IMG/VR virus record: IMGVR_UViG_2778261559_000019
Origin: a virus
Lineage: Duplodnaviria; Heunggongvirae; Uroviricota; Caudoviricetes
Length of the DNA stretch: 7,590 nt
Direction: 5' to 3' (one strand)
Shown here: positions 2,174 through 3,185 of the stretch, one piece after another
How positions within the stretch are numbered: the stretch's first letter is position 1
Layout: each line of letters opens with the position of its first letter
Notes under the pieces: generated by a model
Told to the model about the DNA's origin: nothing
The model's input: the letters and a program-made list of their open reading frames with translations, nothing else
The model's database searches: none
Position numbers and translations under genes: made by a program

Positions 2174-3185
2174 AAAGGTGAAAACCGGCAGTTCATCCAG
2201 TAAGTCAGTATTGACCTGGCTTGCTGATATGTGCGGTGCCGATTTGTGTGCATACCCGTCTGTATCTGCACTGGCAGAAGTAACGGAACTGAACAAAAAG
2301 ACTGTGCAGGACAGCTTACGACACCTGATGGAGATTGGGTTAATTGTTGATACCGGTGAGAGAAAAGGCAGAACAAAGCAAATTGTGGTGTACCGACTTA
2401 TCGGTGTAGAAGAAAGTGTTGCCGAGCCTGAATACACCCAAAAACGGGAGTCTTTAAAGGTGGGTAAAATTGGTGCTGTTAATAAAAACAGTACCGAAAA
2501 TGGTTATGTTTCAGCACAAAACAGACCCAAAAACAGAACTCTTAGCTGCATGGAAAATAACCAAAGACACCCAAATTTTCCATCAAAGACACCCAAAAAC
2601 GGATCACGGAACCCAAAGGAACCCAAAGATCTAAACCCCACACATAACGCACGCGAGAGTGCTCCGACCAGTGAGCAGGAAGTTTTGTCGTTACAGGCAG
2701 CCCCCCCTGTATTCCTGTATGGCCTGAGCGAACCCATCGGAAAATTCCCGATGAGCGATAGCTGGTATCCGTCACGGGATTTTCGACGACGGGCTGCGTT
2801 GTGGGGGATGGCTTTGCCGGAGACAGAATTTACACCTGCTGAACTTGCCGCCTTCCGGGACTACTGGGCAGCGGAGGGGAAAGTGTTTACGCAGATTCAG
2901 TGGGAGCAGAAATTCGCCCGTCACGTAAATCACGTCAGGGCGCAGGTTAAACCAGTCAGCAAAGGGGTAAACCATGCAGCAGCACCAGGTGGCACCGCAT
3001 CACGGGCAGTTCAGGAAATTCGGGCAGCACGTGAGCAGTGGGAACGTGAAAACGGATTTATCAGCGACGGAAACGGCCTGGAAGCTGTGGGAACTCATGG
3101 GGGTGGTTTATTCGAACCGCTGGATCCAGAAGAACGGGGCCGCACCTTCGAAGCTCTGGATTGCACAGATTGGCGCGATGACTGA
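2145..3185 (+). CDS. phage replication initiation protein (O-like): N-terminal HTH domain, low-complexity linker, DnaT-like C-terminal domain
   Basis: ATG at 2145 with AGGGG 5 nt upstream (the ORF track's 2070 start is an upstream TTG). C-terminal GKFPMSDSWYPSRDFRRRAALWGMALPETEFTPAELAAFRDYWAAEGKVFTQIQWEQKFAR matches the E. coli DnaT C-terminal region as recalled. The linker is encoded by iteron-like DNA. Confidence 0.82.
   Translation: MSIDALRWAKKVKTGSSSSKSVLTWLADMCGADLCAYPSVSALAEVTELNKKTVQDSLRHLMEIGLIVDTGERKGRTKQIVVYRLIGVEESVAEPEYTQKRESLKVGKIGAVNKNSTENGYVSAQNRPKNRTLSCMENNQRHPNFPSKTPKNGSRNPKEPKDLNPTHNARESAPTSEQEVLSLQAAPPVFLYGLSEPIGKFPMSDSWYPSRDFRRRAALWGMALPETEFTPAELAAFRDYWAAEGKVFTQIQWEQKFARHVNHVRAQVKPVSKGVNHAAAPGGTASRAVQEIRAAREQWERENGFISDGNGLEAVGTHGGGLFEPLDPEERGRTFEALDCTDWRDD
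2523..2631. repeat. iteron-like direct repeats (candidate replication origin) inside the initiator gene linker
   Basis: Five or more copies of an ACCCAAA core: agACCCAAAaac (2523-2534), CAAAGACACCCAAA twice (2562-2575, 2584-2597), GGAACCCAAAG in tandem (2608-2618, 2619-2629). An AT-rich stretch lies just upstream (2460-2520). Position is analogous to ori-lambda within gene O. Confidence 0.45.

Follow-up and report, generated by a model that had tools for sequence, protein, structure and literature searches.

The replication origin of a Rac-like lambdoid Escherichia coli prophage is probably located at positions 2432-2640 of the DNA analysed here, within the prophage's own replication initiator gene. 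This DNA (IMG/VR virus record IMGVR_UViG_2778261559_000019; the whole stretch, 7.6 kb, is called the window) is the early region of the prophage, and its positions 2070-3700 share 99.8% identity with the 'PPompW' prophages of Shiga toxin-producing E. coli (STEC) O145:H28. The putative origin contains five direct repeats (iterons) of ~22 base pairs (bp), followed on the right by a block of shorter tandem repeats. A reading made earlier from the letters alone (the sequence-only reading) had suggested a probable origin like ori-lambda in this gene, and our comparisons support it on four grounds: conservation of the array, constraint on the DNA itself, co-variation of the repeats with the N-terminal domain of the initiator (N-domain) and gene context. 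The features concerned are listed here by position, strand and content (aa, amino acids).

2145..3185, + strand: replication initiator gene, 346 aa, with its ATG at 2145, in agreement with the PPompW and RefSeq annotations
2145..2420, + strand: winged helix-turn-helix (HTH) DNA-binding domain, aa 1-92 (HTH_36 and AlphaFold2), the presumed reader of the iterons
2432..2453, + strand: iteron 1, ATACACCCAAAAACGGGAGTCT, with canonical core CCAAAAACGG and arms ACACCC/GGGAGT; encodes Y-T-Q-K-R-E
2488..2509, + strand: iteron 2, ACAGTACCGAAAATGGTTATGT, a match to the degenerate core; ACCGAAAATGG variant
2521..2542, + strand: iteron 3, ACAGACCCAAAAACAGAACTCT, one base off the canonical core (A at 2535)
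2565..2586, + strand: iteron 4, AGACACCCAAATTTTCCATCAA, a variant and the weakest call; AAATTTT centre, right arm not GGG
2587..2608, + strand: iteron 5, AGACACCCAAAAACGGATCACG, with canonical core; GATC in the right arm
2608..2640, + strand: right-flank block, tandem GGAACCCAAA x2 (2608-2627; tandem by Tandem Repeats Finder), then AGATCT and AAACCCC
2625..2640, no strand: mosaic joint; megablast against KU052037 begins at query position 556, which is window 2625
2745..2945, + strand: DnaT-like domain (single-stranded-DNA-binding type), Pfam PF17948, aa 202-268 of the translation starting at 2142

The motif that drew attention to this region, ACCCAAA, is found six times in the whole window, always on the + strand (at 2436, 2525, 2569, 2591, 2611 and 2621), and all six copies fall within ~190 bp (2436-2627). 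The chance expectation is 1.34 copies, and six were reached in none of 200 dinucleotide shuffles. At least five copies had been claimed for 2523-2631; five are indeed found there, plus the sixth upstream at 2436. Longer repeats are also seen: the 14-bp pair noticed by the sequence-only reading is CAAAGACACCCAAA, at 2562-2575 and 2584-2597, and ACACCCAAAAACGG is found at both 2434-2447 and 2589-2602. The placement of the repeats in a linker between the HTH and DnaT domains was likewise correct, as the HTH_36 match covers aa 37-68 and the DnaT match aa 202-268.

It is as DNA that the repeats are maintained, whatever peptide they encode. The codon phases of the six ACCCAAA copies are 0, 2, 1, 2, 1 and 2, so that all three reading frames are used, and synonymous recoding of the same protein gives a mean of only 0.75-0.9 copies (six copies in 0 out of 5000 trials); the repeats hence belong to the DNA and not to the peptide. 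Within a single gene, one DNA core reads T-Q-K-R-E or D-P-Q-K-R-D in one frame and P-K-N-G in another, and the array of the Burkholderia phage Bcep176, with a period of 22 bp, cycles through all three frames. At the sites where the core is read in frame as [PTSA][KE]N[GR] (39 distinct sites from 14 relatives), the silent third bases are nearly fixed: C in 38 out of 39, A in 39 out of 39 and C in 38 out of 39, vs 21%, 46% and 64% for the same silent bases elsewhere in the same genes. These sites share descent, and P values hence overstate their independence; the direction of the result is unambiguous.

As a repeat motif, ACCCAAA is real, but it makes up only the left half of a unit of ~22 bp with partial dyad symmetry, A-N4-CCC-R-AAAAC-GGG-N4-T. 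The unit at 2488-2509 (iteron 2) was missed by the sequence-only reading because it contains no ACCCAAA. In the consensus built from 62 distinct aligned sites, the A at position -6 is invariant and T is found at +16 in 51 out of 62; clean examples of the unit are GATCCCAAAAACGGGATC (phage phiV10 and locus L009; loci collected for comparison carry L numbers), GTCCCAAAAACGGGAC (L010), GTCCCAAATTTGGGAC (Bcep176) and GATCCCAAAATTGGGAT (phage GF-2). Relatives show the dyad shape clearly and the window only in part; the five window units at 2432-2608 are all on the + strand, and form a repeat array of the lambda type (at least four units of ~18-22 bp within an open reading frame, ORF).

We compared the array at two evolutionary distances. 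The E. coli sample comprises 85 copies with 36 distinct alleles (an IMG/VR scan with the family alignment gave near-identical E. coli copies alone, and served the allele analysis and not the analysis of diversity). Relatives of the N-domain were taken from phages EPP-1 (Edwardsiella, 58% aa identity), phiV10, H20 (Vibrio), LZ35 (Acinetobacter), Bcep176 and GF-2 (Edwardsiella), and from nine further prophages of Kluyvera, Scandinavium, Enterobacter, Edwardsiella, Plesiomonas and Serratia. The sequence-only reading had named the absence of the repeats from near-identical homologues as a sign that they are incidental; the opposite is seen, with the repeats kept in all 85 E. coli copies (one allele is without one of the two tandem 10-bp units of the right flank).

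The comparison with iterons of related phages, which had also been suggested, extends this conservation: every relative examined has 3-7 direct repeats with related cores, starting ~260-300 nucleotides (nt) into the gene, just after the winged helix, and such arrays are found at the same gene position in relatives down to ~35% identity, representing at least seven lineages. A search of 16 loci (87 kb, both strands) with the degenerate core CC[AG]AA[AT][AT][CT]GG gave 84 matches, of which 80 are in nt 250-520 of the gene (5% of the sequence); in further Burkholderia and Acinetobacter loci, 112 out of 114 matches are within the same gene stretch. Of the four core matches that lie beyond the linker, three represent one inverted copy, aacctCCGAAAACGGgcgtt, found on the minus strand at ~2483 of L003, L012 and L014 (the Edwardsiella group), 17 nt upstream of the initiator start.

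Individual iterons have counterparts in these relatives. Iteron 1 has one at the same gene position (nt 294) in EPP-1, L009, L010, L012-L014 and L016, and the counterpart of iteron 2 is CCGAAAACGG at gene nt 350 in L010, L011 and L017. The window has T at 2501, and several E. coli alleles have the canonical C at this position, which makes the core of their iteron 2 CCGAAAACGG. Similarly, the A at 2535 in iteron 3 is a minority base (CCAAAAACAG, Asn-Arg), the G of the canonical core (CCAAAAACGG, Asn-Gly) being found in ~70 of the 85 E. coli copies. Iteron 4 is nearly invariant among the E. coli alleles; its equivalents by position are ACACCCAATTTTGGAGGG in EPP-1, GATCCCGTTTTTTCC in L009 and GTACCGTTTTTCCC in L010, and its A/T-symmetric centre resembles that of lambda iteron 3. 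Iteron 5 is the equivalent of the last iteron in every relative (e.g. GATCCCAAAAACGGGATC in L009 and phiV10).

The arms of the units vary in a correlated way. Positions -3 and +13 are complementary at a frequency of 0.42, vs 0.25 expected from column composition (permutation P = 0.001), and the arms of iteron 1 differ among E. coli alleles: ACACCC..GGGAGT in the window, ACACCC..GGGTGT in GE3 and ACCCCC..GGGGGG in 08-00022. The arm co-variation and the symmetric allele changes in iteron 1 are only suggestive, but would fit recognition by a dimer.

The repeats change along with the N-domain. Where the N-domains are 38-42% identical to that of Bcep176, different repeats are found at the same gene position, again in several frames: CCCCCTTGTCA-N3-TGACAAGG, ACCCCCGCA (up to nine copies) or TACCCCTGACA. 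The N-domain and its array are joined to several C-termini (DnaT-like, Phg_2220_C, lambda-O-type or others), and the gene is followed by a gene for a P-like loader, a DnaB-type helicase or a DUF6475 protein. Conversely, in YdaU of Rac-SA53 the same C-terminal half (92% nt identity) is combined with an unrelated N-domain, and the array is absent. The N-domain and the iterons thus appear, from these comparisons, to be one specificity unit whose parts change together, which behaves as expected of an origin-recognition module.

The initiator protein has an N-terminal winged helix, a disordered linker whose coding sequence carries the repeats and a C-terminal DnaT-like domain. Its Pfam matches are to DnaT (E = 9e-17) and HTH_36 (E = 3e-4); the latter, at 20.8 bits, is below the Pfam cut-off of 25 bits, and relatives match HTH_36 at E = 1e-7 to 1e-13. 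Among PHROG families, it matches 1032 ('replication initiation protein', E = 9e-91), with further matches to the O-like families 391, 678 and 345. The AlphaFold2 model of aa 1-107 (mean predicted local distance difference test score, pLDDT, of 78) has four helices and a beta-hairpin wing, forming one winged helix, and residues 93-107 score below 50, so disorder is predicted from residue 93 on. This model was built on a shallow alignment, as the homologue search with the N-domain gave mostly truncated or partial proteins of E. coli and Klebsiella. Its Foldseek neighbours are generic winged helices of the MarR/ArsR type (template modelling score, TM, ~0.5), and a profile search of PDB sequences gave nothing useful. 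The wing motif D-T-G-E-R-x-G-x-T is invariant in 12 relatives; we infer that this invariance may be linked to the conserved iteron core, which it fits. Two PHROG profiles are shared with lambda O at overlapping profile positions: 678 (9e-11 for the window N-domain and 2e-35 for lambda O) and 345 (8e-8 and 5e-17, respectively). These shared profiles hint that the N-domain may be remotely homologous to lambda O, and are the sole support for such a relationship.

To the right of the iterons lies a second repeated element. The tandem pair counted by the sequence-only reading among the ACCCAAA repeats is real, but its period is 10 bp rather than 11 bp (GGAACCCAAA x2.1, 2608-2628), and it is separate from the iterons. 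The sequence aligned with GGAACCCAAAGGAACCCAAAGATCT reads CGGAATCTACCAAAGGAACCTAAAGATCT in relatives, therefore ACCCAAA is not conserved in the tandem pair. Judging from the alignments, the pair is a different element and forms part of a conserved block of GAACC-type repeats right of the array. Across 13 lineages, the first 60 nt beyond the last iteron open with C[AG]GAA[CT]C and contain tandem units of 10-13 bp with a GAACC or AACC core, e.g. AGAACCAGTCAT x3 in phiV10 and H20, GGAACAGTAG x4 in Bcep176 and GAACCGTCAAT x2 in L129. The block is found at 2606-2640 of the window, ~2910-2960 of L004, ~2970-3010 of L005 and ~2945-2985 of L007, as well as at the linker ends of L129, L136 and L137, and it is present even in three lineages with quite different iterons. 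AACC is observed 35 times in these flanks (13 x 60 nt), vs 2.7 expected, for a motif picked after seeing the data. The top strand of the flanks has 7-20% T, and their overall AT content is 45-63%. In H20, one GAACC-type unit is read in two frames; the block is therefore a DNA feature as well. By analogy with lambda, where an AT-rich tract stands at this place, the GAACC-type block is a likely opening or loading site.

Several other observations concern this flank. GATC (Dam) sites at 2602-2605 and 2628-2631 flank the tandem pair on both sides; most relatives likewise have GGGATCC in their last iteron and AAAGATCT in their flank, which may bear on SeqA/Dam control of initiation. A G/C palindrome, CCCCC-N1-2-GGGGG (e.g. 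CCCCCAAGGGGG, CCCCCCAGGGGG and CCCCCGAGGGGG), follows the right-flank block at ~2990-3020 of L003, at ~3000-3030 of L016 and in L129; its carriers are lineages with a C-terminus of the Phg_2220_C type and one distant relative, and it is absent from the window.

Mutations also concentrate at the tandem pair. In strain 7_12_15B (L019), a 10-bp deletion of one GGAACCCAAA unit (equivalent to window 2608-2617) leaves the initiator gene in two parts, an ORF with the HTH alone and a DnaT-like pseudogene, and several database proteins of 160-170 aa (P0001, P0003 and P0009) end by frameshift at the same right edge, e.g. with ...KDLKPHT*. This edge of repeats and homopolymers is thus a hot spot for insertions and deletions, and sequencing error is possible for some of these cases. 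A sharp mosaic joint lies here too: the sequence to its right is 92% identical to Rac-SA53 ydaU, and the sequence to its left has no similarity to it. The right side is also similar to an Actinobacillus phage record, and AGATCT/AAACCCCACACAT is shared at the joint. In another disrupted copy (L104 5001-7353, from E. coli O157:H7 PV15-279), IS1203 interrupts the DnaT-like half of the same initiator gene, and the N-domain and iterons are 100% identical to those of the window.

The genomic context of the initiator gene is that of a lambdoid replication module, with these neighbours.

927-1334, - strand: CI-like repressor gene
1411-1638, + strand: Cro-like gene (Pfam P22_Cro)
1622-2173, + strand: YdaT/CII-like gene (Pfam YdaT_toxin; PHROG 163 'CII-like')
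3178..3639, + strand: lambda-P-like helicase loader gene, its first 8 nt shared with the end of the initiator gene
3673-4407: DUF1627 gene
downstream of the DUF1627 gene: paa adhesin gene, then hokD/sok

The Cro-like and YdaT/CII-like genes (1411..2173) are the early rightward operon, which reads into the initiator gene. The gene order is of the lambda type, with cro/cII analogues upstream of the initiator gene and a loader gene directly downstream. In the related O157 prophage CP-933P, YdaS and YdaT, encoded upstream of an 'o' homologue, were shown experimentally to be Cro and CII analogues (PMC8630535). The loader protein matches Pfam Phage_lambda_P (E = 1e-16) and PHROG 109 'P-like helicase loader' (E = 2e-54). 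Annotations of its gene start vary: RefSeq uses the ATG equivalent to 3178 (153 aa), LC567818 uses 3217 (140 aa), and the program-made ORF list stretches the start back to 2974. The N-terminal half of the initiator together with the linker is found in 908 out of 5426 complete E. coli genomes, always with at least 95% identity. We found no DnaA box (TTWTNCACA) anywhere in the window, no promoter-like sites or terminator in 2145-3185, and no Rfam family in or near the repeat array.

Further downstream, the DNA ahead of the paa gene (AcfC-family adhesin, 5267-6025) is richer in AT and less stable than any other in the window (5015-5280, 27-35% GC), a typical trait of acquired morons. The paa gene is followed (6214-6516) by a sok antisense RNA (Rfam RF01794, 104 bits) and hokD. 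Near the end of the window (7476-7539) is a perfect 19-bp tandem repeat, CTGCCGTCCGGCATCGTCC x3.4, in no convincing ORF.

We propose the following mechanism. The five iterons of the same orientation, in the stretch encoding the disordered linker, would be binding sites of the initiator, with the N-terminal winged helix of the same gene's product binding them, probably as dimers. Once bound, the initiators may assemble into a nucleoprotein complex that resembles the lambda O-some. The C-terminal DnaT-like domain and the lambda-P-like protein would bring the host DnaB helicase to DNA opened beside the array, the most likely place of opening being the GAACC-type block (2608-2640), at the position of lambda's AT-rich tract. 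The copy in the window, which has the minority G-to-A change in iteron 3 and belongs to a type of prophage reported to be defective, may or may not still fire.

Several results weigh against an origin here, or against its likeness to lambda. The strict core is matched by only three of the five window units (units 3 and 4 being degenerate). Among the 36 E. coli alleles, the iteron cores are not significantly poorer in polymorphism (11 of 85 vs 25 of 130 sites, P = 0.27). The core-to-core spacings in the window (56, 33, 44 and 22 bp) look like multiples of 11, but helical phasing was rejected, as none of the periods 10, 10.5 and 11 bp fits the spacings of the family consistently (resultant 0.27-0.31). 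The array has no AT-rich tract of the lambda type: the 60 nt to its right are 45% AT, vs 68% in lambda and 45-63% in relatives. The adjoining AT-rich stretch proposed by the sequence-only reading is weak, since the 65-70% AT region (2450-2520) lies between iterons; an AT-rich DNA unwinding element was also rejected on the duplex-stability profile, which is unexceptional, with 2450-2520 outside the window's 12 least stable 40-mers. The window protein has no match to Pfam Phage_rep_O (PF04492), which lambda O matches at 6e-36, and hhalign against lambda O is weak (probability 3.4%, with the HTH alone aligned). Prophages of the PPompW type excise and circularise after mitomycin C treatment, are not packaged and are regarded as defective (PMC8112680). 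Finally, the literature searched contained no experiment on this element or any of its relatives, and no description of the origin of this HTH_36-type initiator family (searches included phiV10, epsilon15 and oriJ).

It is very unlikely that the repeats are a by-product of the low-complexity linker, with selection acting on peptides of the P-K-N-G type (as flexible segments or as a motif for protein binding), the DNA repeats arising by in-frame duplication and slippage, and no role of the DNA. The units of phiV10, H20 and GF-2 would suit this explanation, being in frame with a period of 24 bp and encoding NDPKNGML, NRPENGTL and NDPKIGIL, and so would the strongest spacing period across the family, which is 3 (resultant 0.55), the predicted disorder of the linker, and the 10-bp deletion allele, which shows that slippage occurs. 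But in the window, EPP-1 and Bcep176 (22-bp period) the motif is in two or three frames and encodes unrelated peptides, the silent positions of the in-frame copies are almost invariant, and synonymous recoding of the window protein yields less than one copy on average. Moreover, the motif is kept at ~35% protein identity while the length and sequence of the linker drift. Hardly any credence can be given to the idea that the segment is mainly a recombination joint for exchange of phage replication modules, with the repeats as scars or substrates of exchange. That the similarity to Rac-SA53 ydaU begins exactly at the right edge of the repeats (~2625), that AAAGATCT and AAACCCC are common to different module combinations and that the N-domain with its array is fused to at least three C-terminal types all agree with a joint; yet a joint accounts for the right edge alone, not for an array of 180 bp whose dyad units are oriented and have fixed silent sites, and leaves the change of the repeats along with the N-domain unexplained. 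Given that the O proteins of lambdoid phages are modular, an exchange point at their origin is to be expected (e.g. the lambda/phi80/82 hybrids).

The repeats could instead be sites for the winged helix with a role other than initiation (autoregulation or a roadblock in the early operon, copy-number control by handcuffing, or a centromere-like partition site), which we judge to be clearly unlikely. Direct-repeat arrays bound by winged-helix proteins do also form plasmid centromeres and control sites, the centromere binders TubR and AspA are listed by Foldseek among many generic winged helices, and a clear AT-rich unwinding element is missing. However, the partners of the gene are in every case replication functions (a P-like loader, a DnaB helicase, or a C-terminus of the DnaT or lambda-O type), no partition ATPase gene was seen in the window, and the arrangement copies that of ori-lambda position for position. 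In iteron systems, control roles and origin function can coexist. An origin that lies within the initiator gene and is recognised by its N-domain is the explanation we prefer.

If the origin is correctly placed, its position helps interpret the copy-number amplification of prophage-borne genes after induction, judge which 'defective' prophages still replicate and design origin-cloning or incompatibility experiments. Carriers of the module include O157:H7 and O145:H28 prophages that host Shiga toxin (Stx) phages or carry effector or adhesin genes. For annotation of phages of Enterobacteria, Vibrio, Acinetobacter and Burkholderia, a simple rule would be to search 250-520 nt after the start of an HTH_36-type initiator gene, and the relatives provide a natural series of matched initiator-iteron pairs for studies of winged-helix specificity. 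A broader claim, that the window holds the E. coli representative of a widespread, uncharacterised origin class (HTH_36-type initiators, co-varying iterons and a conserved GAACC-type block replacing the AT-rich element), seems to us unlikely. If it were true, there would be a shared signal for opening or helicase loading, kept where the iterons differ and read by something other than the iteron-binding surface; candidate readers are a host factor, the loader, or single-stranded DNA binding by the initiator similar to that of DnaA-trios. The GAACC-type block is the one feature from which something new on origin opening might be learned.

Among known systems, theta plasmids with iterons (F RepE, R6K pi, pPS10 RepA and P1 RepA) resemble the window in having direct-repeat arrays of ~22 bp and a winged-helix initiator, and the 22-bp period of Bcep176 and the 22-, 33- and 44-bp spacings of the window are of the same kind. 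The repeats are, however, within the initiator coding sequence here and upstream of it in the plasmids, and the window has no Rep_3-type initiator, DnaA box or AT-rich repeat block. The class of Rep_3-type iteron plasmids was ruled out on the intragenic repeats, the lack of a DnaA box and of Rep_3, and the single winged helix; no window protein matches a two-winged-helix initiator of the Rep_3 type by Pfam.

The Rac prophage, which carries an active origin, oriJ (PMC3945230), is similar in its neighbourhood (repressors of the dicA/dicC type and ydaT), and a P-like gene follows in YdaU/YdaV as well. The C-terminal DnaT-like half is 92% identical in nucleotides to Rac-SA53 ydaU from window 2625 on, whereas the N-terminal half of YdaU has no detectable similarity to the window N-domain and the Rac-SA53 linker has no iteron array; a YdaU-type initiator was ruled out on this lack of N-terminal similarity. 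Rac-SA53 ydaU (L001 2174-2188) does contain a single ATACCCAAAAACAGG, almost identical to iteron 3 of the window and encoding K-P-I-P-K-N-R; it lies within the unrelated YdaU N-domain and probably matches by chance. Neither the map position nor the sequence of oriJ was found in the literature searched.

The closest likeness is to lambda and to the six-iteron origins of the Stx phages P27 and 933W (PMC7466680). The origin of lambda and the putative one of the window both occupy the middle part of the initiator gene, right behind the sequence for the N-terminal DNA-binding domain, with a P-type loader gene next in the early rightward operon, and the arrays of lambda, P27 and 933W likewise consist of 4-6 units of ~18-22 bp in the same orientation, with a CCC...GGG dyad and an A-rich centre. 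The annotated lambda iterons (ATCCCTCAAAACGAGGGA, ATCCCTCAAATTGGGGGA) closely resemble GATCCCAAAAACGGGATC, GTCCCAAATTTGGGAC and GATCCCAAAATTGGGAT of the relatives; they follow closely on the O N-domain, their frames being 0, 2, 2 and 1, and the window units are similarly in several frames. One unit has an AAATT centre in both, and both N-domains match PHROG 678 and 345. The differences are that the N-domain is HTH_36 here and not Phage_rep_O (membership of the lambda O family, PF04492, was rejected, as HTH_36 alone is matched), that the unit arms are 2 bp shorter, that the C-terminus is DnaT-like and not lambda-O-type, that the iterons of the window are widely and unevenly spaced, and that the flank has GAACC-type tandem repeats in place of lambda's AT-rich tract. 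The design is thus the classical lambdoid one, with the GAACC-type block as the one feature that might be new.

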